Source: Eledone cirrhosa
Lineage: Eukaryota
Length of the DNA stretch: 64,000 bases
Assembly: GCA_964016885.1 (NCBI GenBank)
Contig: OZ024747.1
Coordinates: 2,108,001 to 2,172,000, forward strand
Direction: 5' to 3'
Part shown: one piece after another, positions 1,577-59,240 of the stretch
Numbering within the stretch: position 1 is the stretch's first letter
How the letters are laid out: every line of letters starts with the position of its first letter
Notes under the pieces: generated by a model
Told to the model about the DNA's origin: nothing
Databases searched by the model: none
Seen by the model: only the letters and a program-made list of their open reading frames with translations
Program-made: the position numbers and the translations under genes

Positions 1577-4238
1577 CATTGGTACAGTGACCTGACACTG
1601 GTACAGTGACCTGACATTGGTACAGTGACCTGTCATTGGTACAGTGACCTGTCATTGGTACAGTGACCTGACATTGGTACAGTCCTGTCATTGGTACAGT
1701 GACCTGACATTGGTACAGTGACCTGACATTGGCACAGTGATCTGGTTCATTGGTACAGTGACCTGACACTGGTACAGTGACCTGACATTGGTACAGCGAC
1801 CTGACATTGGTACAGTCCTGTCATTGGTACAGTGACCTGACATTGGTACAGTGACCTGACATTGGTACAGTGACCTGACATTGGTACAGTGACCTGACAT
1901 TGGTACAGAGACCTGTCATTGGTACAGTGACCTGACATTGGTACAGTGACCTGATATTGGTACAGTGACCTGACATTGGTACAGTGACCTGACATTGGTA
2001 CAGTGACCTGACATTGGTACAGTGACCTGACATTGGTACAGTGACCTGACATTGGTACAGTGACCTGACATTGGTACAGTGACCTGACATTGGTACAGTG
2101 ACCTGACATTGGTACAGAGACCTGTCATTGGTACAGTGACCTGACATTGGTACAGTGACCTGACATTGGTACAGTGACCTGACATTGGTACAGTGACCTG
2201 ACATTGGTACAGTGACCTGACATTGGTACAGTGACCTGACATTGGTACAGTGACCTGACATTGGTACAGTGATCTGGTTCATTGGTACAGTGACCTGACA
2301 TTGGTACAGTGACCTGACATTGGTACAGCGACCTGACATTGGTACAGTCCTGTCATTGGTACAGTGACCTGACATTGGTACAGTGACCTGACATTGGTAC
2401 AGTGACCTGACATTGGTACAGTGACCTGACATTGGTACAGTGACCTGTCATTGGTACAGTGACCTGACATTGGTACAGTGACCTGACATTGGTACAGTCC
2501 TGACATTGGTACAGTGACCTGACATTGGTACAGTGACCTGACATTGGTACAGAGACCTGTCATTGGTACAGTGACCTGACATTGGTACAGTGACCTGTCA
2601 TTGGTACAGTGACCTGACATTGGTACAGAGACCTGTCATTGGTACAGTGACCTGACATTGGTACAGTGACCTGACATTGGTACAGTGACCTGACATTGGT
2701 ACAGTGACCTGACATTGGTACAGTCACCTGACATTGGTACAGTGACCTGACATTGGTACAGTGACCTGACATTGGTACAGTGACCTGACATTGGTACTGT
2801 GACCTGTCATTGGTACAGTGACCTGACATTGGTACAGTGATCTGGTTCATTGGTACAGTGACCTGACATTGGTACAGTGACCTGACATTGGTACAGTGAT
2901 CTGGTTCATTGGTACAGTGACCTGTCACTGGTACAGTGACCTGACATTGGTACAGTGACCTGACATTGGTACAGTGACCTGACATTGGTACAGTGACCTG
3001 ACTTTGGTACAGTCCTGACATTGGTACAGTCCTGACATTGGTACAGTGACCTGTCATTGGTACAGTGACCTGACATTGGTACAGTCCTGACATTGGTACA
3101 GTCCTGACATTGGTACAGTGACCTGACATTGGTACAGTGACCTGACATTGGTACAGTGACCTGACATTGGTACAGTGACCTGACATTGGTACAGTGACCT
3201 GACATTGGTACAATCCTGACATTGGTACAGTGACCTGACATTGGTACAGTGACCTGTCATTGGTACAGTGACCTGACATTGGTACAGTGATCTGGTTCAT
3301 TGGTACAGTGACCTGACTTTGGTACAGTGACCTGTCATTGGTACAGTGACCTGTCATTGGTACAGTGACCTGACATTGGTACAGTGACCTGACTTTGGTA
3401 CAGTGACCTGTCATTGGTACAGTGACCTGTCATTGGTACAGTGACCTGTCATTGGTACAGTGACCTGACATTGGTACAGTGACCTGACATTGGTACAGTG
3501 ACCTGACTTTGGTACAGTGACCTGTCATTGGTACAGTGACCTGTCATTGGTACAGTGACCTGTCATTGGTACAGTGACCTGACATTGGTACAGTGACCTG
3601 ACATTGGTACAGTGACCTGACATTGGTACAGTGACCTGACATTGGTACAGTGACCTGTCATTGGTACAGTGACCTGACATTGGTACAGTGACCTGACATT
3701 GGTACAGTGACCTGACATTGGTACAGTGACCTGACATTGGTACAGTGACCTGACATTGGTACAGTGACCTGACATTGGTACAGTGACCTGACATTGGTAC
3801 AGTGACCTGACTTTGGTACAGTGACCTGTCATTGGTACAGTGACCTGTCATTGGTACAGTGACCTGTCATTGGTACAGTGACCTGTCATTGGTACAGTGA
3901 CCTGACATTGGTACAGTGACCTGACATTGGTACAGTGACCTGACTTTGGTACAGTGACCTGTCATTGGTACAGTGACCTGTCATTGGTACAGTGACCTGT
4001 CATTGGTACAGTGACCTGTCATTGGTACAGTGACCTGACATTGGTACAGTGACCTGACTTTGGTACAGTGACCTGTCATTGGTACAGTGACCTGTCATTG
4101 GTACAGTGACCTGACATTGGTACAGTGACCTGACTTTGGTACAGTGACCTGTCATTGGTACAGTGACCTGTCATTGGTACAGTGACCTGTCATTGGTACA
4201 GTGACCTGTCATTGGTACAGTGACCTGTCATTGGTACA
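1577..4238. repeat. Minisatellite, 19-bp unit CATTGGTACAGTGACCTGA, about 140 copies, with 17- and 21-bp variant units
   Basis: Direct reading; all ORFs in this span are repeat translations. Confidence 0.98.
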
Positions 4239-4287
4239 ATTTTTATGAACATTTGGCTGTGAAGTATACTTAAGATTAATGGCGGAA

Positions 4288-4510
4288 ATGTGGTCTAGTG
4301 GTAAAGGTGTTGAACATACAATCATAATGACATGGGTTTGCTTCCTAGACTGGGTTGTGTGTTGTGTTCTTGAACAAAACACTTCATTTCACATTACTCC
4401 AAGCTTAAAATGAATAACAGCAGCATCCTGTCCAGGGGAGGGTCATGCCATAGAAACTGGAATAAGCACCTGCCTGATGAGCCTTCTGGCTCGAGACAGA
4501 CTTTAGACTT
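4288..4510 (+). mobile_element. tRNA-derived SINE family B (CORE-like), near full length
   Basis: A-box TGGTCTAGTGG, CORE-like GTGTTGTGTTCTTGAACAAAACACTTCATT, 3' stem-loop GAGCC-TTCT-GGCTC and an AGACTTT repeat tail. Confidence 0.7.
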
Positions 4511-4594
4511 TTTTTAAAATTAATATTTGAGATTCAACAACATTGTTTATTTAGTAACGTTGTGTTATGTTACATTTGCTATGGCTGTCTCTAG

Positions 4595-18081: not shown

Positions 18082-19394
18082 AAAAGAGAGAATGGTGCAG
18101 GAGGGCTCAACCAAAGGAGAGAATGGTGCAGGAGGGCTCAACCAAAGGAGAGAATGGTGCAGGAGGGCTCAACCAAAAGAGAGAATGGTGCAGGAGGGCT
18201 CAACCAAAGGAGAGAATGGTGCAGGAGGGCTCAACCAAAGGAGAGAATGGTGCAGGAGGGCTCAACCAAAAGAGAGAATGGTGCAGGAGGGCTCAACCAA
18301 AGGAGAGAATGGTGCAGGAGGGCTCAACCAAAGGAGAGAATGGTGCAGGAGGGCTCAACCAAAGGAGAGAATGGTGCAGGAGGGCTCAACCAAAAGAGAG
18401 AATGGTGCAGGAGGGCTCAACCAAAAGAGAGAATGGTGCAGGAGGGCTCAACCAAAGGAGAGAATGGTGCAGGAGGGCTCAACCAAAGGAGAGAATGGTG
18501 CAGGAGGGCTCAACCAAAAGAGAGAATGGTGCAGGAGGGCTCAACCAAAAGAGAGAATGGTGCAGGAGGGCTCAACCAAAGGAGAGAATGGTGCAGGAGG
18601 GCTCAACCAAAAGAGAGAATGGTGCAGGAGGGCTCAACCAAAAGAGAGAATGGTGCAGGAGGGCTCAACCAAAGGAGAGAATGGTGCAGGAGGGCTCAAC
18701 CAAAGGAGAGAATGGTGCAGGAGGGCTCAACCAAAAGAGAGAATGGTGCAGGAGGGCTCAACCAAAGGAGAGAATGGTGCAGGAGGGCTCAACCAAAGGA
18801 GAGAATGGTGCAGGAGGGCTCAACCAAAAGAGAGAATGGTGCAGGAGGGCTCAACCAAAGGAGAGAATGGTGCAGGAGGGCTCAACCAAAGGAGAGAATG
18901 GTGCAGGAGGGCTCAACCAAAGGAGAGAATGGTGCAGGAGGGCTCAACCAAAAGAGAGAATGGTGCAGGAGGGCTCAACCAAAGGAGAGAATGGTGCAGG
19001 AGGGCTCAACCAAAAGAGAGAATGGTGCAGGAGGGCTCAACCAAAGGAGAGAATGGTGCAGGAGGGCTCAACCAAAGGAGAGAATGGTGCAGGAGGGCTC
19101 AACCAAAGGAGAGAATGGTGCAGGAGGGCTCAACCAAAAGAGAGAATGGTGCAGGAGGGCTCAACCAAAGGAGAGAATGGTGCAGGAGGGCTCAACCAAA
19201 AGAGAGAATGGTGCAGGAGGGCTCAACCAAAGGAGAGAATGGTGCAGGAGGGCTCAACCAAAAGAGAGAATGGTGCAGGAGGGCTCAACCAAAGGAGAGA
19301 ATGGTGCAGGAGGGCTCAACCAAAAGAGAGAATGGTGCAGGAGGGCTCAACCAAAGGAGAGAATGGTGCACATGGATTCAACCAAAGGAGAGAA
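18082..19394. repeat. Minisatellite, 31-bp unit GAGAGAATGGTGCAGGAGGGCTCAACCAAA(A/G), about 42 copies
   Basis: Direct reading; the unit has no stop on +, so all three frames are open. Confidence 0.98.
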
Positions 19395-27656: not shown

Positions 27657-28609
27657 TCTTTCATTCCATTATATTGAACTTTGGCAATATTTTGGTATAT
27701 TGTCTCTTCGTAAGTTATTAAAAAAAAAAAAACACATTTTAATTGAACATATTTTAATTTTAATTTTTTAATCAAATGTAATTGAAATTTTGAAATTTGA
27801 ACTGTGACATTGATACAGTGCAAACTAAAATCTTGAATAAATGGATACAGGCATGGAAATGTAGTTAGAAATGGGTGCAGACATGTCTGTGTGTTTAAAT
27901 ATTAGTGCAGGAATGGCTGTGTGTTTAAGTATTGGTGTAGACATATCTGTATGATTAAGAATAGCTGTGTGTTTAACATGATTACATTTCAACCTTATGG
28001 ATCTAGGTTCAATCTCATTATGCAGCACATTAGTTAAATGTTGTGAACCATAGAAATAGAGAGGACCCAATAATATGGTGATCAGAATTTGGGGGATGAA
28101 AATTGTGTAGAAGCCCATAGTATATGTGTTTGCTTATGTGTGTATAAGTGAGTGAGTGAGAGTGTGTGTGTATGCATGTGAGTGCATGTGTGTATGTGTG
28201 TGAATGCTTTTGTGTGTATGTGTGTGTGCATGTGTTTGTGTGTGTGTCTTTCATGTCTATGTATATCAGTAAAATGGATGTTTTGAAATAAAAACAACAT
28301 GTGTGATGTTTGTTCCAACAGAAAGCCTGAAACTAATTCTGTCATAGGAATTCCAGTCAAGTGTCTCAAATGTTGGTATCAGCACCGGCCCTACAAGTAT
28401 TTTGTAGAATATTGTAGAATATTGTAGAATATTGTCTTGTAGAGGTCAGCTCAGGCTGCCATACTGTGTTTGGCTTGGTATATCTTTTCTGTTTTATATA
28501 TATTTTTGTCAATATGTAAGTATTTGTATCATGAATTGCATGGTAGTCTAAGTCTATAGTCTGTCTTAAGCCAGTCATGGCGGGAAGCGACTGAGAGTAC
28601 AAGACTCAC

Positions 28610-28703
28610 TCTTGGACAAGAACACAACACGCAACCCAGGAATCGAACCCATGACATTATGATCATAAGTCCAACACCCTTGTCACTAGGCCACGTGCCT
28701 CCA
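28610..28703 (-). mobile_element. SINE family B tRNA head
   Basis: Reverse strand reads GGAGGCACGTGGCCTAGTGA..GGGTTCGATTCC..GTGTTGTGTTCTTG. Confidence 0.7.
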
Positions 28704-29172
28704 CCAATTGTATAGTAGAGAGAGACCATAAATACAAAGGGCCAGGGTTTAAAAAACAGTTTTTCCACATTCAGCTGTTATATATGAACATGCATACAAG
28801 CATGAAAAGCTAGACACACTTTCCCACAATGCTACTGGAATGGTTAAAAAGCTCTCAGTCCACCCTGTAAGGTGGTCATGCTGGTGATGCAACAAAAGCT
28901 CCCTAGTCTACCCTGTAAGGTGCTCATGCTGATGACATGACAAAAATCACCCAGCCCACCTTGATTATACCCTGAGCTGATCGATATCAAATCAATTGCT
29001 ACAAATAGCATTTGTACATCTGCTGCAACACTGACTTTTAAATCTATTTACACTCTGCACTCTACAGTTGTAACATGGGAATACAACCCAAACAAAACGG
29101 ACATCATAACACCTGGAGTGCTTCAAACGGCACGCTGCCTGTAACTGTTGTTACACACACATATATATATAT

Positions 29173-29814
29173 ATCATCATCCTCGTTTAATGTCCACTTT
29201 CCACGCTAGCATGGGTTAGACGGGAGTTGTCCCACTTGAGGCAAGGTGGGTCGGGTGACCGTGTCTCGCTCATATAGGACTATCTGGCAGGTTTTCTACG
29301 GCTGGATGTCCTTCCTAACACCAACCACATTTACAGTGTGGAACTGGGAACTTTTTACCGTGTTACCTACACGGCCACATTACAGTGTGGACTGTGTGTT
29401 TTTTCTCGTGACACCTACACGATCTCGATCTCATTTATCTCATTTATTTGGACTGGATGCTGAGGTACCAACTTTATAGAGAGGGGGTGGTGTTGGTGGG
29501 AGTGGGAGGATAGGGTAGGGGTAGTGGATTGGGGTGTATATTTGGTTAAGAGGTCCCTACTGACTGTAGGGTTCTCTTTGTACATAGGCAAGGTGGGTCT
29601 TTTGTATTACTGCGTAGTGCCAAAGATCTCGGTCCAGTGACATTGTCTTAGAGAGGTGCAAGTGTGTAAGGTCGGAATTTATCAGATCGTCCCAGGTTTT
29701 TCTGGGTCTGCCTACTCCGTAACTTCCATCAATTTTGATCGCCCTGCACTTTTTTATACAGCTGTCGTCTTTCATGCGCATCACATGGCCATACCAATGT
29801 AGTCTTCTCTCCAG

Positions 29815-29815
<1 letters not shown>
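29173..29815 (-). mobile_element. 5'-truncated RTE LINE 3' end (sister of 12028-12676)
   Basis: [39 protein letters not shown], with the same 3' UTR and GAT tail. Confidence 0.9.
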
Positions 29816-29845
<30 letters not shown>

Positions 29846-29923
29846 GCTGCCTGTAACTGTTGTTACACATATATACATACATATATGTATATACATACAT
29901 ACGCGCTGCCTGTAACTGTTGTT

Positions 29924-29956
<33 letters not shown>

Positions 29957-29986
29957 CATACATACACGGTGCCTGTAACTGTTGTT

Positions 29987-30036
<50 letters not shown>

Positions 30037-30044
<8 letters not shown>

Positions 30045-30379
30045 ATACTTTGGGAGGGTCATGTTGCCAATAAGAAACACACGCACCAGTTGCTTTCACT
30101 TCAATTTAATTTATTATATATTTATAAATTTACAAATTTATAAATTTCTGGTTGGTTGGTTCCACAACCAGATAGTTGTTTATATATATATAGTCATAGT
30201 TCTTTCGTCACACACTCTGTGACCTCTTCAGTGACTGGGGATTTCTTTCTTCGTTTCTGTGCCTTTCCTTTCTTCTATCCTACGCCAAAATGGCGTAGGA
30301 TAGAAGAAAGCAACTGGTGAAAGCAACTGGTGCGTGTGTTTCTTATTGGCAACATGACCCTCCCAAAGTATAACAATAT
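30037..30379. repeat. 63-bp perfect inverted repeats enclosing a hammerhead and a 20-bp hairpin (PLE-like terminus)
   Basis: 30037-30099 is the reverse complement of 30317-30379; internal perfect hairpin 30268-30310. Confidence 0.85.
30192..30236 (-). ncRNA. Minimal type I hammerhead ribozyme motif
   Basis: AGTCA-CTGAAGA-g-GTCACA.gagtg.TGTGAC-GAAA-GAAC-TA-TGACT; stem I 5 bp, stem II 6 bp, minimal helix III, CUA triplet. Confidence 0.75.
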
Positions 30380-30480
30380 CGGTTTCAACACACGATTTCA
30401 GATAAAGAATCTTGCTAAACAAATTCAGAAACGATATATATATATACATACATACATACACGCTGCCTGTAACTGTTGTT

Positions 30481-30529
<49 letters not shown>

Positions 30530-30576
30530 CACACTGCCTGTAACTGTTGTTACACACACACACATATATATATATA

Positions 30577-31952
30577 TAATAATAATGAAATGATTGTGTA
30601 CAGTGCTCAGGTGCACTACAACTCGTCAAAGGTGCATGTATAGTACATAGAATAATACACAAATGTCAGGGAAGTGAATAGTGTATGAGTCATGATATAC
30701 ATGTGTGTATGTGTATGGAGGGGGAACATCAGGTGTAGTGTTGGCGGATCTCGGGAAGCATGGAGGCCTTAAAGGATGCAGTGTCTCGACAGCTAACAAC
30801 TGATGCAGGTAGTTTGTTCCATGGAGGCCTTAAAGGATGCAGTGTCTCGACAGCTAACAACTGATGCAGGTAGTTTGTTCCATGGAGGCCTTAAAGGATG
30901 CAGTGTCTCGACAGCTAATAACTGATGCAGGTAGTTTGTTCCATGGAGGCCTTAAAGGATGCAGTGTCTCGACAGCTAACAACTGATGCAGGTAGTTTGT
31001 TCCATGGAGGTTTTAAAGGATGCAGTGTCTCGACAGCTAACAACTGATGCAGGTAGTTTGTTCCATGGAGGTTTTAAAGGATGCAGTGTCTCGACAGCTA
31101 ATAACTGATGCAGGTAGTTTGTTCCATGGAGGCCTTAAAGGATGCAGTGTCTCGACAGCTAACAACTGATGCAGGTAGTTTGTTCCATGGAGGTTTTAAA
31201 GGATGCAGTGTCTCGACAGCTAATAACTGATGCAGGTAGTTTGTTCCATGGAGGCCTTAAAGGATGCAGTGTCTCGACAGCTAACAACTGATGCAGGTAG
31301 TTTGTTCCATGGAGGCCTTAAAGGATGCAGTGTCTCGACAGCTAATAACTGATGCAGGTAGTTTGTTCCATGGAGGCCTTAAAGGATGCAGTGTCTCGAC
31401 AGCTAACAACTGATGCAGGTAGTTTGTTCCATGGAGGCTTTAAAGGATGCAGTGTCTCGACAGCTAACAACTGATGCAGGTAGTTTGTTCCATGGAGGCC
31501 TTAAAGGATGCAGTGTCTCGACAGCTAACAACTGATGCAGGTAGTTTGTTCCATGGAGGCCTTAAAGGATGCAGTGTCTCGACAGCTAACAACTGATGCA
31601 GGTAGTTTGTTCCATGGAGGTTTTAAAGGATGCAGTGTCCCAGCAGCTAACAACTGATGCAGGTAGTTTGTTCCATGCTTCAGCAACTCTGAGCATGAAA
31701 AAATGTTTCCGAAAGTCATGGGAACTGTGCTGTTTTCTGACTTTGCGGTCATGCCCACGTGTTTTAGACACATTGAAATCAAAAAGGTACTCAGGGTTGT
31801 TGTTGGCAACATGGTTAACAATTTTGTGGGTGTTTACCAAGTCAGTTGCCAGGCGTCGGAGCTTCAATGTATCCATGCCCAGGGAAGCAAGGCATTCAGA
31901 GTATGGTAGATGCCTGATGGAGGGTATTCGCTTGGTTGCACGTCTCTGAACA
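30577..31952 (-). mobile_element. 5'-truncated CR1 LINE 3' end containing an internal tandem expansion
   Basis: VQRRATKRIPSIRHLPYSECLASLGMDTLKLRRL..DL..THKI..TRGH..K..RKHFF..RV..AWNKLP..VV is a canonical CR1 C-terminus; 3' UTR and (ATT)n tail present. Confidence 0.92.
30759..31677. repeat. Minisatellite, 61-bp unit x15, inside the CR1 ORF2 end
   Basis: CATG at 30759 and 31674 are 15 x 61 bp apart. Confidence 0.97.
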
Positions 31953-31980
31953 TACATACACGCTGCCTGTAACTGTTGTT

Positions 31981-32023
<43 letters not shown>

Positions 32024-32077
32024 CATACACGCTGCCTGTAACTGTTGTTACACACACTGATATATATATATATATAC

Positions 32078-32520
32078 GTGTGTATAATGGTAGCTATGGT
32101 GCTTCCATAGGCGGTATGCCAAAATTAGCACTCAATATTCTTACAGAGCAGAGTGTGAATAGTATACAAAAACGAAAAATCAGTGATGCATCTGGACTCA
32201 GTTTATTGCGTGTTACAATTGTTTCGCCTGCAGCTCGAGACATGATCACTGTATAGATCTGGCTGATTCTACGGCTGCAGGTTCCTCCAGACACATGCAA
32301 TTCTTTCAGAGCAAATTTTCTCACTGGGGTGTTATCATAAAAAAACACCTTCAAAACACATCTTCCACTCTTGTCCTGCCATTGGCTGTTCTTTTTCTAC
32401 GTCATCATAAATTCTGGTCACTATTTACTGCTACACAGGTCATCAGCCATTTTCCGTCGGACACACTTCAATGGAGCCATGCTGGGTTTGGTATCTCACA
32501 CGTCTGTTCACACTCCGGAG
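32078..32520 (-). mobile_element. (TA)n-associated non-coding element with hammerhead-like motif (32208-32298)
   Basis: Homologous to 43070-43385; GTGT-CTGGAGGA-a-CCTGCAGC..GCTGCAGG-c-GAAA-CAATTG-TA-ACAC. Confidence 0.6.
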
Positions 32521-32524
32521 TATG

Positions 32525-33375
32525 TACCCACATATACACACACACACACACACACAGACATACACACTCGCAGGCACACACACACATGCATGCATACACG
32601 TATGTACGCACACATGTGTAGACACACATACTCCCATGCACATATATACACACACACACTCTCCCTCTCTTACACATACCCAAGCACACCCACACCCACA
32701 TGCATACCACCACATGCCTATTGGTGCCTGCCTATACAGCCCCTTACATCCGGTGTCACACGCACATACATGCACACACACACGCAGACACACATGTACA
32801 TGCATACAAAGACACATATCGGTGTTCGGGCACATCTGCACATTTATACACAAACACTCTCAGACACATACATAGACACACACACGCACATACACGCACA
32901 TACACGCATATCCTTACGGATAGGCATCAAGGACAGACACACTTCCAAAGACATAAGCACACATACACACACATACACACACATACACACACAAGTACAT
33001 GTACCCACATATAAACATATAGACAAACCCAGTCCTATGTGGGTGTACGTACGCACCCACACACACACACCCCCACTGACAGATACACATACCATGGATA
33101 TATATGCGTGTGTACATAGACACACACACATACACACGCATACATACACACACACACATACACATATACATATATGTATGCATATACTTATATATATATA
33201 TACATATATATACACACATACACATACAAGCTTATACACACACATGTCTATATGTGTGCATACACACACACATACAAACACATCGACACACACATACGCA
33301 CAAACATATGGCTACGCATTTCCATATATACATACATTTATATAAATACATACACATACATACATATATATACAT
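32525..33375. repeat. CA/TA-rich low-complexity tract
   Basis: Direct reading. Confidence 0.85.
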
Positions 33376-33406
33376 ACACGCTGCCTATAACTGTTGTTAC
33401 ACACAC

Positions 33407-33449
<43 letters not shown>

Positions 33450-33628
33450 CACGCTGCCTATAACTGTTGTTACACACATACATACATACATATATACACA
33501 CATATATATACATACATACATACATACACTCTTGTTTACACTCTTGGTTGTGTTTGTCTTGAAAAGACTGAGGCTACATAGAATGAAGTGGAGTGTTTAG
33601 ATTTGTGAGAGACACTCCACCCTCTCAT

Positions 33629-35185
33629 GTAGTGGTGGTGGTGGTGGTGGTGGTGGTGGTGGTGGTGGTCGTGATGGTAGTAGTGGTGGTGGTATTGGTG
33701 GTGGTGCTGGTATTGGTGGTGGTATTGGTGGTGGTGGTGGTGGTGGTGGTGGTGGTAGTGGTGGTGGTGATGATGGTGGTGGTGGTGGTGGTCGTGGTGG
33801 TGGTGGTGGTGGTGATGGTAGTAGTGGTGGTGGTATTGGTGGTGGTGGTGGTATTGGTGGTGGTATTGGTGGTGGTGGTGGTGGTGGTGGTGGTGGTGGT
33901 GGTGGTGGTGGTCGTGGTGGTGGTGGTGGTGGTGATGGTAGTAGTGGTGGTGGTGGTGGTGGTGGTGGTGGTGGTGGTGGTGGTCGTGGTGGTGGTGGTG
34001 GTGGTGGTGGTGGTGGTGGTGGTGGTCGTGGTGGTGGTGATGATGGTGGTGGTGGTGGTGGTAGTAGTGGTGGTGGTGGTGGTAGTGGTGGTGGTGGTGG
34101 TAGTGGTGGTGGTGGTGGTAGTAGTGGTGGTGGTGGTGGTGGTGGTGGTGGTGGTGGTGGTGGTGATGATGGTGGTGGTGGTGGTGGTAGTAGTGGTGGT
34201 GGTGGTCGTGGTGGTGGTGGTGGTGGTGGTGGTGGTAGTGGTGGTGGTGGTAGTAGTGGTGGTGGTGGTGGTGGTGGTGGTGGTGGTGGTGGTGGTGGTC
34301 GTGGTGGTGGTGATGATGGTGGTGGTGGTGGTGGTAGTAGTGGTGGTGGTAGTGGTGGTGGTGGTGGTGGTGGTAGTGGTGGTGGTGGTGGTAGTAGTGG
34401 TGGTGGTGGTGGTGGTGGTGGTGGTGGTCGTGGTCGTGGTGGTGGTGGTGGTGGTGGTGGTGGTGGTGGTGGTCGTGGTGGTCGTGGTGGTGGTGATGAT
34501 GGTGGTGGTGGTGGTGGTAGTAGTGGTGGTGGTGGTGGTAGTGGTGGTGGTGGTGGTGGTGGTAGTGGTGGTGGTGGTGGTAGTGGTGGTGGTGGTGGTG
34601 GTGGTGGTGGTGGTGGTAGTAGTGGTGGTGGTGGTGGTGGTGGTGGTGGTGGTGGTGGTGGTGGTCGTGGTGGTCGTGGTGGTGGTGATGATGGTGGTGG
34701 TGGTGGTGGTGGTGGTGGTGGTAGTGGTGGTGGTGGTGGTGGTGGTGGTGATGGTAGTAGTGGTGGTGGTATTGGTGGTGGTGGTGGTATTGGTGGTGGT
34801 ATTGGTGGTATTGGTGGTGGTGGTGGTGGTGGTGATGGTGATGATGGTGGTAGTAGTGGTGGTGGTGGTGGTGGTGATAGTGGTAGTAGTGGTGGTGGTG
34901 GTGGTGGTGGTAGTGGTGGTGGTTGTGGTGGTGGTGGTGGTGATGGTGGCGGCGGTGGTGGTGGTAGTGGTGGTGGTAGTGGTGGTGGTGGTTTTGGTAG
35001 CAGTGATGATGGTGGTGGTGGTGGTGGTGGTGGTAGCAGTGATGATAGTGGCGGCGGTGGTGGTGATGATGGTGGTGGCGGTGGTGGTGGTGGTGGTGGT
35101 AGTGGTGGTGGTGGTGGTGGTTTTGGTAGCAGTGATGATGGTGGCGGCAGTGGTGGTGGTGGCAATGGTGATGATGATGATGATG
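33629..35185. repeat. 1.55-kb interrupted (GGT)n array
   Basis: Direct reading; the poly-V and poly-P ORFs are artefacts. Confidence 0.97.
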
Positions 35186-35745: not shown

Positions 35746-35816
35746 TTAAAGACCAAGAATAGTGGAAGGGGAAGAAGGAAATATTCTGAAAACAGAGACC
35801 TAGCATGAATGCTTGA

Positions 35817-38770
35817 AACAGAGTATATCCTGCTAAAGGCACCCTAGGTCCAGTTGGCACCAATGTTTGTAACAGAGTATACCCTGATAAAGGCACCCTA
35901 GGTCCAGTTGGCACCAATGTTTGTAACAGAGTATACCCTGTTAAAGGCATCCTAGGTCCAGTTGGCACCAATGTTTGTAACAGGGTATACCCTGCTAAAG
36001 GCACCCTAGGTCCAGTTGGCACCAATGTTTGTAACAGAGTATACCCTGATAAAGGCACCCTAGGTCCAGTTGGCACCAATGTTTGTAACAGAGTATTCCC
36101 TGCTAAAGGCACCCTAGGTCCAGTTGGCACCAATGTTTGTAACAGAGTATACCCTGATAAAGGCACCCTAGGTCCAGTTGGCACCAATGTTTGTAACAGA
36201 GTATACCCTGCTAAAGGCACCCTAGGTCCAGTTGGCACCAATGTTTGTAACAGGGTATACCCTGCTAAAGGCACCCTAGGTCCAGTTGGCACCAATGTTT
36301 GTAACAGAGTATACCCTGCTAATGGCACCCTAGGTCCAGTTGGCACCAATGTTTGTAACAGAGTATACCCTGTTAAAGGCACCCTAGGTCCAGTTGTCAC
36401 CAATGTTTGTAACAGAGTATTCCCTGCTAAAGGCACCCTAGGTCCAGTTGGCACCAATGTTTGTAACAGAGTATACCCTGTTAAAGGCACCCTAGGTCCA
36501 GTTGGCACCAATGTTTGTAACAGAGTATACCCTGTTAAAGGCACCCTAGGTCCAGTTGGCACCAATGTTTGTAACAGAGTATTCCCTGCTAAAGGCACCC
36601 TAGGTCCAGTTGGCACCAATGTTTGTAACAGAGTATACCCTGTTAAAGGCACCCTAGGTCCAGTTGGCACCAATGTTTGTAACAGAGTATACCCTGTTAA
36701 AGGCACCCTAGGTCCAGTTGGCACCAATGTTTGTAACAGAGTATACCCTGCTAATGGCACCCTAGGTCCAGTTGGCACCAATGTTTGTAACAGAGTATAC
36801 CCTGATAAAGGCACCCTAGGTCCAGTTGTCACCAATGTTTGTAACAGAGTATTCCCTGCTAAAGGCACCCTAGGTCCAGTTGGCACCAATGTTTGTAACA
36901 GAGTATACCCTGCTAAAGGCACCCTAGGTCCAGTTGGCACCAATGTTTGTAACAGAGTATACCCTGCTAAAGGCACCCTAGGTCCAGTTGGCACCAATGT
37001 TTGTAACAGAGTATACCCTGCTAATGGCACCCTAGGTCCAGTTGGCACCAATGTTTGTAACAGAGTATACCCTGTTAAAGGCACCCTAGGTCCAGTTGGC
37101 ACCAATGTTTGTAACAGAGTATACCCTGTTAAAGGCACCCTAGGTCCAGTTGGCACCAATGTTTGTAACAGAGTATACCCTGCTAATGGCACCCTAGGTC
37201 CAGTTGGCACCAATGTTTGTAACAGAGTATACCCTGTTAAAGGCACCCTAGGTCCAGTTGGCACCAATGTTTGTAACAGGGTATACCCTGCTAAAGGCAC
37301 CCTAGGTCCAGTTGGCACCAATGTTTGTAACAGAGTATACCCTGTTAAAGGCACCCTAGGTCCAGTTGGCACCAATGTTTGTAACAGGGTATACCCTGTT
37401 AAAGGCACCCTAGGTCCAGTTGGCACCAATGTTTGTAACAGAGTATACCCTGTTAAAGGCACCCTAGGTCCAGTTGGCACCAATGTTTGTAACAGGGTAT
37501 ACCCTGCTAAAGGCACCCTAGGTCCAGTTGGCACCAATGTTTGTAACAGAGTATACCCTGTTAAAGGCACCCTAGGTCCAGTTGTCACCAATGTTTGTAA
37601 CAGAGTATTCCCTGCTAAAGGCACCCTAGGTCCAGTTGGCACCAATGTTTGTAACAGAGTATTCCCTGCTAAAGGCACCCTAGGTCCAGTTGGCACCAAT
37701 GTTTGTAACAGAGTATACCCTGTTAAAGGCATCCTAGGTCCAGTTGGCACCAATGTTTGTAACAGAGTATACCCTGATAAAGGCACCCTAGGTCCAGTTG
37801 GCACCAATGTTTGTAACAGAGTATTCCCTGCTAAAGGCACCCTAGGTCCAGTTGGCACCAATGTTTGTAACAGAGTATTCCCTGCTAAAGGCACCCTAGG
37901 TCCAGTTGGCACCAATGTTTGTAACAGAGTATACCCTGTTAAAGGCATCCTAGGTCCAGTTGGCACCAATGTTTGTAACAGGGTATACCCTGCTAAAGGC
38001 ACCCTAGGTCCAGTTGGCACCAATGTTTGTAACAGGGTATTCCCTGTTAAAGGCACCCTAGGTCCAGTTGGCACCAATGTTTGTAACAGAGTATACACTG
38101 TTAAAGGCATCCTAGGTCCAGTTGGCACCAATGTTTGTAACAGAGTATACCCTGCTAAAAGCACCCTAGGTCCAGTTGGCACCAATGTTTGTAACAGAGT
38201 ATACCCTGCTAAAGGCACCCTAGGTCCAGTTGGCACCAATGTTTGTAACAGAGTATACCCTGATAAAGGCACCCTAGGTCCAGTTGGCACCAATGTTTGT
38301 AACAGAGTATTCCCTGTTAAAGGCACCCTAGGTCCAGTTGGCACCAATGTTTGTAACAGAGTATACCCTGCTAAAAGCACCCTAGGTCCAGTTGGCACCA
38401 ATGTTTGTAACAGAGTATACCCTGCTAAAGGCACCCTAGGTCCAGTTGGCACCAATGTTTGTAACAGAGTATACCCTGATAAAGGCATCCTAGGTCCAGT
38501 TGGCACCAATGTTTGTAACAGAGTATACCCTGCTAAAAGCACCCTAGGTCCAGTTGGCACCAATGTTTGTAACAGAGTATACCCTGCTAAAGGCACCCTA
38601 GGTTCAGTTGGCACCAATGTTTGTAACAGAGTATACCCTGCTAAAAGCACCCTAGGTCCAGTTGGCACCAATGTTTGTAACAGAGTATTCCCTGCTAAAG
38701 GCACCCTAGGTCCAGTTGGCACCAATGTTTGTAACAGAGTATACCCTGCTAAAGGCACCCTAGGTCCAGT
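35817..38770. repeat. Minisatellite, 54-bp unit AACAGAGTATACCCTGCTAAAGGCACCCTAGGTCCAGTTGGCACCAATGTTTGT, about 55 copies
   Basis: Direct reading; one minus frame is open as an 18-aa repeat. Confidence 0.98.
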
Positions 38771-49357: not shown

Positions 49358-50522
49358 CTTTATTTCTTTCATTCCATCTTTATTTCTGTCTTTCTCCAGA
49401 TATCAATAAGCTAGCAAATGGATTTTCATAAATACATACAAATATGTGTTGGCTGTATGTTTATAGAATTGTATATGAATCTTCCCTAAAGCAATATTCA
49501 AGTACATTAAACTCAGTTGCCAACTGCATTTCTGTTTCCCTTCCTTGGGAACCTTAACAAGCCTGTCATTGGCTGTAGCAGATATTACACAAATACAGAC
49601 CAACAACATAATACAGCTGTCACACACCAACAGCAGCAGTGAGTGTATAAAACTCAATGGTAGGATACAGATTTCTTGTAATGACATTCACATACGGAAT
49701 CGGTAGTAGCAACACTGTAAGTATATATACATATATACTTTATTATTATTGTTTTTTTTAAAAATCTTAATTTACCTGTGGTTTTTTTTGTTTTTTAATT
49801 TAAGAAACACAGACATAAATATAAAATTGTTGAAATACCTTTAAATTATAGAAAAAAGAAATTATAGTAAAAAGTAAAGAATAAAACAAACAAGAAAAAT
49901 AAAAGAATTTACAAAAACACAAAAAAGTAAACAAATAAACTAAATATAAGACAAAAACAAAACAAAAGAAATAAAACTGTGATTGGAAATCCTTTTTTTA
50001 TTTTAATTTTTTCTGATAAGAATTTAAATAGTTTGAAAATTTTAAATGTGGTGGATCATCATCATCACCATTATCATGCTACTACACACTTTTGATGAGT
50101 TGTGGTGCACCTGAGCACTGTACAATCATTTCATTATTATCATTTTCCTCATTTTCCCTATACACATCACTATCAATGTCACTATCATCATCATCATTGT
50201 CATCATCATAACCACCACCACCACCACCCCATTGCCATCACCACCAGCAACATCACTGTCATCATCATCATCATAACCACCACCAACACCACCCCATTGC
50301 CTTCACCACCATCATCATCATTATTCTCCTCTTCCTCCACCTCCTCCTACACATCATCATCATCAACCTAACTGTTGTTGTTACTCAAGATATTGCCCAG
50401 CATGGCCACAGACTAATAATTGAATCCAGTTAAAAAATAAAAATAAAATTATAAAACCAAAAAGTCAAAGAAAAAAACATCCTTAGTTAGTTTTTAATTT
50501 ATATAACTTAATATAGAACTGG

Positions 50523-50976
50523 TCGGTGTGGAGACTTCAGGTGTGGACTTTGTACTGTCGGTGTGGAGACCTCAGGTGTGGACTTTGTACTGTCGGTGTG
50601 GAGACCTCAGGTGTGGACTTTGTACTGTCGGTGTGGAGACCTCAGGTGTGGACTTTGTACTGTCGGTGTGGAGACCTCAGGTGTGGACTTCGTACTGTCG
50701 GTGTGGAGACTTCAGGTGTGGACTTTGTACTGTCGGTGTGGAGACTTCAGGTGTGGACTTTGTACTGTCGGTGTGGAGACCTCAGGTGTGGACTTTGTAC
50801 TGTCGGTGTGGAGACTTCAGGTGTGGACTTTGTACTGTCGGTGTGGAGACTTCAGGTGTGGACTTTGTACTGTCGGTGTGGAGACTTCAGGTGTGGACTT
50901 TGTACTGTCGGTGTGGCGACCTCAGGTGTGGACTTTGTACTGTCGGTGTGGAGACTCAGGTGTGGACTTTGTACTG
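50523..50976. repeat. Minisatellite, 35-bp unit TCGGTGTGGAGAC(C/T)TCAGGTGTGGACTTTGTACTG x13
   Basis: Direct reading; the last unit is 34 bp. Confidence 0.97.
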
Positions 50977-51656
50977 TCCAGCTCTTCCATAAGATGGGAA
51001 TGTCAGCAGCCCTGTAAAGAGCTAGAAATGCTTTGCAGTCTTGTCTGTGAGACACAGCCCCAACACTGCTGAACACTAGGCCCAGAACCCATCACCCTCT
51101 CCCCTTCTCCCTCCCTTTCTTCTGTGGCCCTAGAGTCCTTGCTTTTCCCCTCCTTTTCCTCTTATGGCTTTCATAGTCCTTTCCTCTACTTCCCCATACA
51201 GCCAGACCTGCCCTTCCTCATCCCTTCCTCACCCCTTCCTCACCCCTACCTTACCCCTTCCCACTCCTACCTTACCCCTTCCTTCCCATTTTCTCATTAA
51301 TTTAACTTTTATTTTTATTTCTCTTATTTATTTATCTTTTGAAAAGAAACTTCTCTAAATAAAATCTTAAAGTTGTATTTATTTTGCAGGTAACTTAATC
51401 ATTTATATATTATATTAATTATTACCTGTAACTTTAGCTAGACATTAATAACAAGTAAAACATAGCAACAATTTAATGATTACAGGTGTTTAGTAATAAT
51501 TAATGAAAGGAAGGAGTTGAAAAAGTGAAAATAATTAAAACTATTTAACAAAAAACTGTTAAAACAACATTTTATTGAATATGAATAAACAAGTTTGGTT
51601 TGGAAATACTTTTTATTTCTCTTGAAATATATTTCAAGTGTTAAACTTAGGTGGAA

Positions 51657-54120
51657 TGGTGTGGTGGTGGTGATGGCGGTGTTGTGGTGGTGGTGTGGTG
51701 GCGGTGTTGTGGTAGTGGTGTGTTGGTGGTGTTGTGGTAGTGGTGGTGTTGTTGTAGTAGTGGTGTGGTGGTGGTGTTGTGGTAGTGGTGTGGTGGCGGC
51801 GTTGTGGTAGTGGTGTGTTGGTGGTGTTGTGGTAGTGGTGGTGTTGTTGTAGTAGTGGTGTGGTGGTGGTGTTGTGGTAGTGGTGTGGTGGTGGTGTTGT
51901 GGTGGTGGTGTGGTGGCGGTGTTGTGGTAGTGGTGTGTTGGTGGTATTGTGGTAGTGGTGGTGTTGTTGTAGTAGTGGTGTGGTGGTGGTGTTGTGGTAG
52001 TGGTGTGGTGGCGGCATTGTGGTAGCGGTGTGGTAGTGGTGTTGTGGTAGTGGTGGTGTTGTTGTAGTAGTGATGTGGTGGTGGTGTTGTGGTGGTGGTG
52101 TGGTGGTGGTGTTGTGGTGGTGGTGTGGTGGCGGTGTTGTGGTGGTGGTGTGGTGGCGGCATTGTGGTAGTGGTGTGGTGGTGGTGTTGTGGTAGTGGTG
52201 GTGTTGTTGTAGTAGTGGTGTGGTGGTGGTGTTGTGGTAGTGGTGGTGTTGTTGTAGTAGTGATGTGGTGGTGGTGTTGTGGTGGTGGTGTGGTGGTGGT
52301 GTTGTGGTGGTGGTGTGGTGGCGGCGTTGTGGTAGTGGTGTGGTGGTGGTGTTGTGGTAGTGGTGGTGTTGTTGTAGTAGTGGTGTGGTGGTGGTGTTGT
52401 GGTAGTGGTGTGGTGGCGGCGTTGTGGTAGTGGTGTGTTGGTGGTGTTGTGGTAGTGGTGGTGTTGTTGTAGTAGTGGTGTGGTGGTGGTGTTGTGGTAG
52501 TGGTGGTGTTGTTGTAGTAGTGATGTGGTGGTGGTGTTGTGGTGGTGGTGTGGTGGTGGTGTTGTGGTGGTGGTGTGGTGGCGGCGTTGTGGTAGTGGTG
52601 TGGTGGTGGTGTTGTGGTAGTGGTGGTGTTGTTGTAGTAGTGGTGTGGTGGTGGTGTTGTGGTAGTGGTGTGGTGGTGGTGTTGTGGTGGTGGTGTGGTG
52701 GCGGCGTTGTGGTAGTGGTGTGGTGGTGGTGTTGTGGTAGTGGTGGTGTTGTTGTAGTAGTGGTGTGGTGGTGGTGTTGTGGTAGTGGTGTGGTGGCGGC
52801 GTTGTGGTAGTGGTGTGGTGGTGGTGTTGTGGTAGTGGTGGTGTTGTTGTAGTAGTGGTGTGGTGGTGGTGTTGTGGTAGTGGTGTGGTGGTGGTGTTGT
52901 GGTGGTGGTGTAGTGGCGGTGTTGTGGTAGTGGTGTGGTGGTGGTGTTGTGGTAGTGGTGGTGTTGTTGTAGTAGTGGTGTGGTGGTGGTGTTGTGGTAG
53001 TGGTGGTGTTGTTGTGGTAGTGGTGGTGTTGTTGTGGTGTGGTGGTGGTGTAGTGGTGGTGTGGTTGTGGTGGTGTGGTGGTGTGGTTGTGGTGGTGTGG
53101 TGGTAGTAGTGGTGTGGTGGTGGTAGTGGTGGTGTTGTTGTGGTGGTGTGGTGGTGGTGTTGTGGTTGTGTTGGTGTGGTGGTGTTGGTGTTGTTGTAGT
53201 GGTGATAGTGGTGGTGGTGTTGTTGTAGTTGTAGTGGTGGTGGTGGTGTTGTTGTGGTGGTGTTGTTGTTGTTGTTGAGGTAGTGATGGTAGTGGTGGTA
53301 GTAGTGATGTGGTGGAGGTCTTGTGGTAGTGGTGTGGTGGCAGTGTTGTGGTACTGGTGGTGTGGTGGTGGTGGTAGTAGTGGTGGTGTGGTGGTGGTGT
53401 GGTGGTGTAGTGGTGGTGTGGTGGTGGTGTAGTTGTGGTGGTGGTGTAGTGGTGGGGTGGGGGTGTGGTGGGGGTGTGGTGGTAGTGGTGTTGTGGTAGT
53501 AGTGGTGTCGTGGTGGTGGTGTGGTGGTGGTGCTGTAGTTGTGCCATGTGGTGGTGGTGGTGTTGTGGTGGTGTTGTGGTGGTGTTGTGGTGGTGGTTTG
53601 TGGTGGTGTTGTGGTGGTGGTGTTGTGGTGGTGGTGTTGTGGTGGTGGTGTTGTGGTGGTGTTGTGGTGGTGGTGGTGTTGTGGTGGTGTGGTGGTGTTG
53701 TGGTGGTGGTGTTGTGGTGGTGTTGTGGTGGTGTTGTGGTGGTGGTGCTGTGGTGGTGTTGTGGTGGTGGTGTTGTGGTGGTGTTGTGGTGGTGGTGCTG
53801 TGGTGGTGGTGTTGTGGTGGTGTTGTGGTGGTGGTGGTGTTGTGGTGTTGTGGTGGTGTTGTGGTGGTGTTGTGGTGGTGTGGTGGTGTTGTGGTGGTGT
53901 TGTGGTGGTGGTGCTGTGGTGGTGTTGTGGTGGTGGTGTTGTGGTGGTGTTGTGGTGGTGGAGCTGTGGTGGTGCTGTGGTGGTGTTGTGGTGGTGGTGT
54001 TGTGGTGGTGTTGTGGTGGTGGTGCTGTGGTGGTGTTGTGGTGGTGTTGTGGTGGTGGTGTTGTGGTGGTGGTGGTGTTGTGGTGGTGGTGGTGTTGTGG
54101 TGGTGGTGCTGTGGTGGTAG
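51657..54120. repeat. 2.5-kb GT-rich cryptic satellite (GTG/GTT/GTA) with higher-order blocks
   Basis: Direct reading; 52561-52680 is nearly identical to 52681-52800. Confidence 0.95.
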
Positions 54121-55072: not shown

Positions 55073-58000
55073 CATACAGTTAGGTCTATTACCAACCTCT
55101 CTAGTGATGGTGTCATACAGTTGGGTCTATTACCAACCTCTCTAGTGATGGTGTCATACAGTTGGGTCTATTACCAACCTCTCTAGTGATGGTGTCATAC
55201 AGTTGGGTCTATTACCAACCTCTCTAGTGTTAGTATCATACAGTTAGGTTTATTACCAACCTCTCTAGTGATGGTGTCATACAGTTAGGTCTATTACCAA
55301 CCTCTCTAGTGATAGTGTCATACAGTTAGGTCTATAACCAACCTCTCTAGTGATGGTGTCATACAGTTAGGTCTATAACCAACCTCTCTAGTGATGGTGT
55401 CATACAGTTAGGTTTATTACCAACCTCTCTAGTGATGGTGTCATACAGTTAGGTCTATTACCAACCTCTCTAGTGATAGTGTCATACAGTTAGGTCTATT
55501 ACCAACCTCTCTAGTGATGGAGTCATACAGTTAGGTCTATTACCAACCTCTCTAGTGATGGTGTCATACAGTTAGGTCTATTACCAACCTCTCTAGTGAT
55601 AGTGTCATACAGTTGGGTCTATTACCAACCTCTCTAGTGATAGTGTCATACAGTTAGGTCTATTAGCAACCTCTCTAGTGATGGTGTCATACAGTTAGGT
55701 CTATTACCAACCTCTCTAGTGATAGTGTCATACAGTTAGGTCTATTACCAACCTCTCTAGTGATGGAGTCATACAGTTGGGTCTATTACCAACCTCTCTA
55801 GTGATGGTGTCATACAGTTGGGTCTATTACCAACCTCTCTAGTGATAGTGTCATACAGTTAGGTCTATTACCAACCTCTCTAGTGATGGAGTCATACAGT
55901 TAGGTCTATTACCAACCTCTCTAGTGATAGTGTCATACAGTTGGGTCTATTACCAACCTCTCTAGTGATAGTGTCATACAGTTAGGTCTATTACCAACCT
56001 CTCTAGTGATGGAGTCATACAGTTAGGTTTATTACCAACCTCTCTAGTGATGGTGTCATACAGTTAGGTCTATTACCAACCTCTCTAGTGATGGAGTCAT
56101 ACAGTTGGGTCTATTACCAACCTCTCTAGTGATAGTGTCATACAGTTAGGTCTATTACCAACCTCTCTAGTGATAGTGTCATACAGTTGGGTCTATTACC
56201 AACCTCTCTAGTGATGGTGTCATACAGTTAGGTCTATTACCAACCTCTCTAGTGATGGAGTCATACAGTTGGGTCTATTACCAACCTCTCTAGTGATGGT
56301 GTCATACAGTTAGGTTTATTACCAACCTCTCTAGTGATGGAGTTATACAGTTAGGTCTATTACCAACCTCTCTAGTGATGGTGTCATACAGTTGGGTCTA
56401 TTACCAACCTCTCTAGTGATGGAGTCATACAGTTAGGTCTATTACCAACCTCTCTAGTGATGGTGTCATACAGTTAGGTTTATTACCAACCTCTCTAGTG
56501 ATGGTGTCATACAGTTAGGTCTATTACCAACCTCTCTAGTGATGGTGTCATACAGTTGGGTCTATTACCAACCTCTCTAGTGATGGTGTCATACAGTTAG
56601 GTCTATTACCAACCTCTCTAGTGATGGTGTCATACAGTTAGGTCTATTACCAACCTCTCTAGTGATGGTGTCATACAGTTAGGTCTATTACCAACCTCTC
56701 TAGTGATGGAGTCATACAGTTGGGTCTATTACCAACCTCTCTAGTGATGGTGTCATACAGTTAGGTCTATTACCAACCTCTCTAGTGATGGTGTCATACA
56801 GTTGGGTCTATTACCAACCTCTCTAGTGATAGTGTCATACAGTTGGGTCTATTACCAACCTCTCTAGTGATGGAGTCATACAGTTAGGTCTATTACCAAC
56901 CTCTCTAGTGTTAGTATCATACAGTTAGGTCTATTACCAACCTCTCTAGTGATAGTGTCATACAGTTAGGTCTATTACCAACCTCTCTAGTGATGGAGTC
57001 ATACAGTTGGGTCTATTACCAACCTCTCTAGTGATGGTGTCATACAGTTAGGTTTATTACCAACCTCTCTAGTGATGGAGTTATACAGTTAGGTCTATTA
57101 CCAACCTCTCTAGTGATGGTGTCATACAGTTGGGTCTATTACCAACCTCTCTAGTGATAGTGTCATACAGTTGGGTCTATTACCAACCTCTCTAGTGATG
57201 GAGTCATACAGTTAGGTCTATTACCAACCTCTCTAGTGTTAGTATCATACAGTTAGGTCTATTACCAACCTCTCTAGTGATAGTGTCATACAGTTAGGTC
57301 TATTACCAACCTCTCTAGTGATGGAGTCATACAGTTAGGTCTATTACCAACCTCTCTAGTGTTAGTATCATACAGTTAGGTCTATTACCAACCTCTCTAG
57401 TGATAGTGTCATACAGTTAGGTCTATTACCAACCTCTCTAGTGATGGAGTCATACAGTTAGGTCTATTACCAACCTCTCTAGTGATGGTGACATACAGTT
57501 GGGTCTATTACCAACCTCTCTAGTGTTAGTATCATACAGTTAGGTCTATTACCAACCTCTCTAGTGATAGTATCATACAGTTAGGTCTATTACCAACCTC
57601 TCTAGTGATGGAGTCATACAGTTGGGTCTATTACCAACCTCTCTAGTGATGGAGTCATACAGTTGGGTCTATTACCAACCTCTCTAGTGATGGTGTCATA
57701 CAGTCAGGTCTATTACCAACCTCTCTAGTGATGGTGTCATACAGTTAGGTCTATTACCAACCTCTCTAGTGATGGTGTCATACAGTCAGGTCTATTACCA
57801 ACCTCTCTAGTGATGGTGTCATACAGTTGGGTCTATTACCAACCTCTCTAGTGATGGTGTCATACAGTTAGGTCTATTACCAACCTCTCTAGTGATGGAG
57901 TCATACAGTTGGGTCTATTACCAACCTCTCTAGTGATGGTGTCATACAGTTGGGTCTATTACCAACCTCTCTAGTGATGGTGTCATACAGTTAGGTCTAT

Positions 58001-58191
58001 TACCAACCTCTCTAGTGATGGTGTCATACAGTTAGGTCTATTACCAACCTCTCTATTGATGGTGTCATACAGTTGGGTCTATTACCAACCTCTCTAGTGA
58101 TGGTGTCATACAGTTAGGTCTATTACCAACCTCTCTAGTGATGGTGTCATACAGTTAGGTCTATTACCAACCTCTCTAGTGATGGTGTCAT
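55073..58191. repeat. Minisatellite, 41-bp unit CATACAGTTAGGTCTATTACCAACCTCTCTAGTGATGGTGT x76
   Basis: CAT at 55073 and 58189 are 76 x 41 bp apart; runs into a family C SINE body. Confidence 0.98.
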
Positions 58192-58265: not shown

Positions 58266-59240
58266 CCCTTTAGCATTTACTCTACTATTATATTTTTGTG
58301 GTAAAGGCTTTATCTCACATAATATCTCACATAATATCTCACATAATATTGAATCTAACAGATTTTGATGATGTTATTATTTATTTTGAGAACAGTATCT
58401 TAACATTGGTATAAGTGGCTAGTTATGGCAGGCTTGAAGAGAAAGAGGTGAGAGAATTCTGGCTAGTTATGGCTGGTTTGAACAGAAAGAGGTGAGAGAA
58501 TTCTGGCTAGTTATGGCTGGTTTGAACAGAAAGAGGTGAGAGAATTCTGGCTAGTTATGGCAGGCTTGAACAGAAAGAGGTGAGAGAATTCTGGCTAGTT
58601 ATGGCAGGTTTGAACAGAAAGAGGTGAGAGAATTCTGGCTAGTTATGGCCGGTTTGAACAGAAAGAGGTGTGAGAATTCTGGCTAGTTATGGCAGGCTTG
58701 AACAGAAAGAGGTGAGAGAATTCTGGCTAGTTATGGCTGGTTTGAACAGAAAGAGGTGAGAGAATTCTGGCTAGTTATGGCCGGTTTGAACAGAAAGAGG
58801 TGAGAGAATTCTGGCTAGTTATGGCAGGCTTGAACAGAAAGAGGTGTGAGAATTCTGGCTAGTTATGGCTTGTTTGAACAGAAAGAGGTGAGAGAATTCT
58901 GGCTAGTTATGGCTTGTTTGAACAGAAAGAGGTGAGAGAATTCTGGCTAGTTATGGCCGGTTTGAAAAGAAAGAGGTGAGAGAATTCTGGCTAGTTATGG
59001 CCGGTTTGAACAGAAAGAGGTGAGAGAATTCTGGCTAGTTATGGCAGGCTTGAACAGAAAGAGGTGTGAGAATTCTGGCTAGTTATGGCTTGTTTGAACA
59101 GAAAGAGGTGAGAGAATTCTGGCTAGTTATGGCCGGTTTGAACAGAAAGAGGTGTGAGAATTCTGGCTAGTTATGGCCGGTTTGAAAAGAAAGAGGTGAG
59201 AGAATTCTGGCTAGTTATGGCTGGTTTAAATACTAAAGAG
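58266..59240 (+). mobile_element. piggyBac-type MITE inflated by an internal 44-bp x18 tandem array (58416-59228)
   Basis: Same ends and body as the ~210-bp copies at 35536 and 47643; unit TGGCTAGTTATGGCTGGTTTGAACAGAAAGAGGTGAGAGAATTC. Confidence 0.9.

Follow-up and report, generated by a model that had tools for sequence, protein, structure and literature searches.

We analysed a 64,000-nucleotide window of Eledone cirrhosa DNA (GenBank assembly GCA_964016885.1, contig OZ024747.1, positions 2,108,001 to 2,172,000 of the forward strand; positions below count from its first letter). Here a 27-bp motif present in ten copies, R1 to R10 from left to right, alternates with microsatellite DNA and four mobile-element inserts. 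The genome measures 3.0 Gb, and this contig (C7) begins 2.1 Mb before the window. Our analysis indicates that the locus is probably a compound TA minisatellite that grew by microhomology slippage from the tail of a Penelope-like element and was then entered by TA-seeking retroelements. A sequence-only reading had earlier proposed serial break repair or a retroelement trap, and had named a minisatellite that later received independent insertions as the case against itself. That case is the best fit.

Origin and layout of the repeat copies

The motif is the terminal 27 bp of an old dispersed family, here called X. Family search and alignment placed a 5'-truncated old copy of X at 28957..29157 on the plus strand, and its final 27 bp are R1 (29131..29157, plus strand), the original motif at the distal end of the one-sided X tail. 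The left flank of R1, earlier taken to be unique, is the body of this dispersed family: the 181 bases ending at R1 had 774 candidates genome-wide, and the 40 that were scored showed 77-85% identity (about 80%). Other X copies continue past the motif for a few family bases and then run into a CA or TA microsatellite. A second motif copy within 1.5 kb was found at none of 40 distinct X loci. An exact 19-mer of the motif had 78 sites genome-wide, 8 at the locus and 70 elsewhere; all 70 were solitary, with the nearest pair 45 kb apart. We observed that all ten copies carry the window allele (the upstream 7 bases plus the loss of X's last bases), which was matched by 0/30 other X loci. Because R2-R10 share this local allele, unseen at those 30 loci, they descended from R1 and are not new X insertions, and the amplification was local.

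The X arm was present on both strands in 17/40 loci, the motif-bearing part was confined to one arm, and the tail extends at one end only. Hammerheads were detected by descriptor search; the Rfam scan gave none above the gathering score, its 67 matches all falling below it and belonging mainly to CA/TA-rich microRNA models. By descriptor, a type I hammerhead (helix II of at most 8 bp, palindromic loop III) was found at 4/40 X loci compared to 0/28 control loci. Judged on its structure alone, X would be a Penelope-like family. At one other locus (L089, 1500-1519) the motif stood alone between CA/TA tracts with no X body, and may be either a tip that was transposed or the remnant of an X copy truncated almost to nothing.

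The motif scan of the window found five exact copies and five with a single mismatch, starting at 29131, 29843, 29902, 29965, 30459, 30530, 31959, 32028, 33377 and 33450. There were no occurrences in 100 shuffles or in the rest of the 64-kb window, which agrees with the ten copies, the order, the CA/TA tracts and the absence elsewhere given by the sequence-only reading. All copies lie on the plus strand, in the order R-[1]-RRR-[2]-RR-[3]-RR-[4]-RR: R1, then R2, R3 and R4 with CA/TA/CATA spacers (29843..29991), R5 and R6 (30459..30556), R7 and R8 (31959..32054), and R9 and R10 (33377..33476). Five of the nine inter-copy gaps are CA, TA and CATA microsatellite only (32-46 bp); the remaining four (467-1402 bp) hold inserts of 0.4-1.4 kb. 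The head-to-tail unit is 59-73 bp, given by the Tandem Repeats Finder periods at uninterrupted copy groups, and falls within the 10-100 bp range of minisatellites. No second allele of the locus was present in the assembly.

Four substitutions were distributed among the copies, which differ pairwise by 3.5% on average (~1.8% per copy). The sole shared variant was a private substitution in R9 and R10, as had been noted, and no insert lies between these two. The bases CAC start R1 after unique X sequence; they also end the terminal CA/TA/CATA tract (33477..33529, plus strand), after which the single-copy right flank begins. The idea that a short microhomology bounds the re-copied motif was therefore sound, and CAC at both ends of the array would be the signature of tandem duplication at a three-base microhomology. 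The hairpin of the motif, noted earlier, folded no better than shuffles (−3.6 kcal/mol, z −1.0) and reached only −1.1 in R9/R10.

A dispersed repeat lay within 130 bp of the X end at 12 or more of 40 other X loci (at least 12/40). At two of those 12 (L010 and L015) it was a 3' end of the RTE family that is near insert 1 by sequence and in the same orientation. For these two loci a composite 'X+RTE' family or a segmental duplication was considered and rejected, since the X and RTE parts have unequal identities (86 vs 93% at one locus, 87 vs 90% at the other) and the RTE matches stop at different points. Judging by the unequal identities, these RTEs were inserted independently.

The four inserts

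All four inserts belong to abundant families and are young. Genome-wide searches gave 9214, 432, 2127 and 3404 candidates for inserts 1 to 4, with best identities of 96, 99, 97 and 95%. From left to right, divergence from the column majority of the 13-14 best relatives was 2.5, 0 (0/267 columns), 2.6 and 2.9%. The youngest insert, insert 2, is internal, which does not fit the polarised gain of inserts that had been suggested.

Family search identified inserts 1 (29175..29814) and 3 (30578..31950) as 5'-truncated 3' ends of long interspersed nuclear elements (LINEs) on the minus strand. This part of the earlier description stood; we take insert 1 to be RTE-like and insert 3 to be CR1-like from protein motifs in longer natural copies. 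Pfam gave no match on these two short LINE pieces in the window. Insert 1 has its 3' simple-repeat tail toward R1 and TA on both sides, and insert 3 shows short microhomology to the CATA tract at its 5' junction. A tandem-repeat search found within insert 3 a CATG-bounded minisatellite (30759..31677, no strand assigned) of 15 copies of a 61-bp piece, absent from the earlier description. Four other RTE copies (L117, L119, L120, L121) share the 5' end base of insert 1, with the element reading into TA, a microhomology truncation hot spot.

Insert 2 (30041..30434, family search) is a very young palindromic Penelope-like element with a one-sided tail at 30380-30434. It has no single orientation because it is palindromic, with a 3' end at both sides. 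Its right arm carries an internal deletion at the palindrome centre; the deletion is joined at a microhomology and accompanied by a templated duplication of 13 bp (30306-30332). The family was palindromic in 14/14 cases, and 14/14 other copies had TA on both sides. The descriptor predicted a minimal type I hammerhead at 30192..30236 on the minus strand (core 30231; helix I of 5 bp, helix II of 6 bp, minimal helix III), in keeping with the hammerhead/inverted-repeat element that had been recognised as the second insert. It was the single hammerhead in 28500-33700, with none in the repeat units. The other members of this very young family (L037-L050) are near-perfect palindromes of ~500-560 bp that carry a hammerhead per arm. 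The central deletions of insert 2 and L037 are distinct, as cruciform instability would give.

Insert 4 (32077..33376, minus strand, family search) is a single Penelope-like element arm with a ~97-bp one-sided tail at left and a CA-rich body. It had been described as a second hammerhead-like element plus CA-rich DNA. We observed that the whole is one element, ~85-89% identical to 3/14 relatives over nearly full length. The descriptor found the canonical hammerhead core neither in insert 4 nor in any of 14 relatives; the 3' half is kept. Inverted arms of the family occur at L111 and L112. Insert 4 matched family X over 83 bp at 73%, as distant relatives do, so the statement that the inserts are unrelated holds among the four and fails for insert 4 and the family of the motif.

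A GIY-YIG frame lay near one insert 4 relative (E 2e-4, just below the Pfam cut-off), with other sequence separating frame and copy. No reverse transcriptase (RT) or GIY-YIG frame linked to the family was found in two 9.9-kb extensions of relatives, the sole regions scanned. A hammerhead and LINE frames beyond the relative at L111 and the GIY-YIG frame at L112 were set aside as membership evidence, as they lie outside the family's aligned span. The L112 frame (3697-4554) has an upstream cysteine cluster and comes from an autonomous Penelope-like element that is truncated and belongs to a different family.

Penelope-like elements are described as having inverted arms, a one-sided tail, (TA)n targets and minimal hammerheads on opposite strands (PMC8557442, PMC4209133, PMC11167929). 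X, insert 2 and insert 4 share the arms, the tail and the targets; the hammerhead is present in insert 2 and at the 4/40 X loci, and insert 4 lacks the canonical core. They differ in their tails (about 97 bp for insert 4, about 55 and 115 bp for the others), which exceed the 30-40 bp given there, and in that no RT or GIY-YIG frame was linked in the scan of the two insert 4 relatives. The purified Penelope-like enzyme is reported to cut both strands at AT-rich DNA, and reverse transcription to begin within a stem-loop of the tail that is rich in AC (PMC11167929). By analogy, the motif hairpin may be a relic of such a priming site. LINE, RTE, CR1 and Penelope-like families are described as recently active in one octopus (PMC13282606).

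The four families differed in their association with TA. Within 60 bp of the 3' tips, (TA)n was found in 17/17 copies of the insert 2 family, 14/14 of the insert 4 family and 24/43 of the RTE family of insert 1, compared to 22% of random positions. TA tracts had been proposed as hot spots, and (TA)n indeed adjoins every tail end examined in the insert 2 and insert 4 families.

Tandem repeats in the window and comparable arrays elsewhere

Seven large minisatellites make up 12.2 kb of the window, one of them within insert 3. The six others, with units of 19-54 bp, and a pair of (TGG)n-rich tracts several kilobases long lie at 1577-4238, 18082-19394, 35808-38770, 50522-50978, 55073-58191, 58416-59227, 33632-35162 and 51657-54118. 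This window near the contig end is strongly prone to tandem expansion.

Loci that overlap the window, and places that occurred twice, were excluded from the comparisons. Among 101 other loci, L068 and L122 had a LINE flanked to left and right by repeats of one core. The CR1 copy at L068 contains four copies of the 61-bp piece that is present 15 times in insert 3. L122 (575-1580, G000:C2:142.71 Mb), together with L128-L146, revealed a second TA-linked core, family 'Y'. A search with the L122 core returned 12 arrays of 4-19 copies. Eight of the 12 were split, by nine inserts in all, and 8/9 inserts matched other loci. The two inserts at L122 have opposite orientations. These arrays may partly be inherited from their parent element. 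At L120/L127 (G000:C10:52.77 Mb) an RTE 3' end cut at the insert 1 base has a family Y end on one side and, on the other, that Y end in three inverted copies.

A literature search for the exact layout of the window locus found none, with papers judged in part by title or abstract start, and we read this silence as lack of attention and not as novelty of kind. Local amplification of Penelope terminal sequence and non-long terminal repeat (non-LTR) retrozymes have been described (bioRxiv 10.64898/2026.07.22.740005). As in such transposon-derived minisatellites, a terminal piece of an inserted copy has here grown into a tandem array. The present unit, only 27 bp plus microsatellite, does not qualify as a retrozyme because it lacks a ribozyme, and the array is split by four elements.

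Mechanism, alternatives and meaning

In the course of events that we favour, an X copy would have inserted into a CA/TA microsatellite and then decayed. Replication slippage or microhomology-mediated repair would have returned from (CATA)n to the CAC at the start of the motif, making the 59-73 bp unit, which would then have expanded as the other minisatellites of the window did. Growth and insertion would have overlapped in time, every new TA tract offering a new target, and the four retroelements would have entered TA tracts by ordinary, independent retrotransposition. Copies can multiply without insertion, because five of nine gaps are insert-free and R9 and R10 share their variant. The lack of divergence in insert 2, set against the 3.5% pairwise difference of the repeats, was counted for later insertion. 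The copy pairs flanking inserts had a private variant in common in 0/4 cases and differed by a substitution in 3/4, so a large target-site duplication is not indicated. The split family Y arrays, the dispersed repeats beside other X ends and the many large minisatellites of the window also favour this course.

Several observations weigh against this course. Inserts occupy 4/9 gaps at the locus compared to 7/50 long-TA gaps in comparison arrays (P = 0.053, Fisher's test), and four inserts in nine gaps gave a binomial P of 0.02-0.35 depending on background; these gap-count P values are to be read knowing that the locus was chosen for its striking look. No inserts are adjacent at the locus (15/126 arrangements). 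In the comparison arrays 8/9 inserts lay in the distal third (P = 0.002 if uniform, P = 0.035 weighted by TA length, both post hoc). The array (~1.8% per copy) and inserts 1, 3 and 4 (2.5-2.9%) are similar in age, which growth coupled to insertion predicts likewise. CR1 tips of the insert 3 family were weakly TA-associated (7/20, with the same 22% for random positions), the 5' side of insert 3 lacks TA, and target-site duplications are unreadable within TA tracts. The three orientable inserts (1, 3 and 4) are all on the minus strand. At L068 (1050-3060, G000:C23:0.84 Mb) one 72-bp unit is followed by a CR1 3' end and then by ten units. Finally, insert 2 bears its microhomology deletion with the 13-bp templated duplication.

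Regrowth coupled to insertion we consider unlikely and yet the strongest of the alternatives. A nick or break in TA would prime retroelement reverse transcription, a microhomology-mediated template switch would close the far junction, and the motif would be re-copied one to three times, every capture thereby adding motif and TA sites; as the end of a Penelope tail, the motif might itself attract the nicking enzyme. The similar ages, the distal bias, the arrangement at L068 and the insert 2 junction are all in its favour. R1 also stands directly before an insert, and two to three copies lie behind every insert. Microhomology-mediated end joining (MMEJ) at TA breaks is reported to leave short templated duplications in human cells (PMC13645644), and a Penelope-like enzyme cuts AT-rich DNA and primes in the AC-rich tail stem-loop (PMC11167929). 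The MMEJ system has TA tracts, microhomology junctions and short local duplications in common with the locus. It differs in being described for extrachromosomal DNA (ecDNA) of human cancer, somatic and with no retroelement capture, whereas here there are sequence scars in a germ-line assembly (PMC13645644). Against coupled regrowth, the pairs flanking inserts share no private variant, while R9 and R10 were duplicated insert-free. The youngest insert is internal, between differing copies. The 70 other intact 19-mer sites are unamplified, and the hairpin was not selected. More doubtful still is a specific form of the idea, in which a relic Penelope tail beside (TA)n would act as a self-renewing landing pad, being nicked, having retroelement RNA copied into it and seeing the motif re-copied behind each insert.

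In the DNA-templated capture proposed by the sequence-only reading, a broken end would copy a distant TA-flanked locus and return, and the inserts would be copies of genomic donors. The 5' truncation points of inserts 1 and 3 do recur, the former at four RTE loci and the latter at one CR1 locus. These loci are 85-94% (RTE) and 87% (CR1) identical, compared to 96-97% for the best ordinary relatives, and they share few window variants (0-1 of 16-17 for RTE, 2 of 9 for CR1). The internal junction of insert 2 is single-copy in the genome, and no donor flank was brought along. None of the three inserts tested (1-3) had a donor that agreed with it in junctions and variants, by an exact-pattern search that misses mutated or unassembled donors. 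These data suggest that capture from DNA donors is very improbable, and it is largely refuted.

Equally improbable is a trap maintained by selection, whether as a source of antisense small RNA, like a miniature cluster of PIWI-interacting RNAs (piRNAs), or as a memory like clustered regularly interspaced short palindromic repeats (CRISPR). CRISPR arrays and piRNA clusters have, as here, a repeat-spacer look or foreign mobile sequence between repeats, and three inserts here are antisense. The likeness to CRISPR had rightly been limited to layout: spacers range from 32 bp to 1.4 kb, 5/9 are microsatellite only, there is no polarity and the repeat structure is not conserved. The common orientation of the three orientable inserts favours a trap. 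It had been put at four inserts, all on the minus strand, with a chance of 1 in 8; this stands for inserts 1, 3 and 4 and not for palindromic insert 2, and with three informative inserts the chance that all point one way, whichever it is, is 1 in 4. LINE pieces occur on both strands in the remainder of the window, and cases were too few to show an orientation bias from CA vs TG context. piRNAs are reported to be widespread in molluscs (PMC6128900). Against a trap, this is a single locus whose repeats and hairpin decay in a neutral-looking way, and similar arrays are common, one of them with opposite orientations. We infer that the locus is without function. Misassembly of TA-bounded repeats is hardly credible: each junction does lie inside a microsatellite, but copies and inserts have private variants and distinct spacers, the flanks are ordinary, the right one being single-copy, and nearby kilobase minisatellites were resolved. 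Three sequencing runs matched 58-63% of the sequence words searched; they come from one sample, possibly the source of the assembly, and are not independent of it, and no RNA run was among those listed.

On the reading that we favour, a minisatellite grown from a Penelope-like tail and later entered by retroelements, the locus illustrates the making of repeat DNA out of TA microsatellites, the ends of transposons and insertions that came later, and it shows no sign of function. If the landing pad were real, this TA-rich genome should contain many such arrays, which would preserve a record over time of transposon activity and of break repair in the germ line. The layout recurs elsewhere, so comparisons of alleles could tell whether, in an animal germ line, retroelement insertion into TA itself causes duplication nearby, and the family Y arrays are a ready population for this question of insertion-coupled growth. 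If insertion does drive duplication, Penelope integration, TA fragility and minisatellite birth would be linked.

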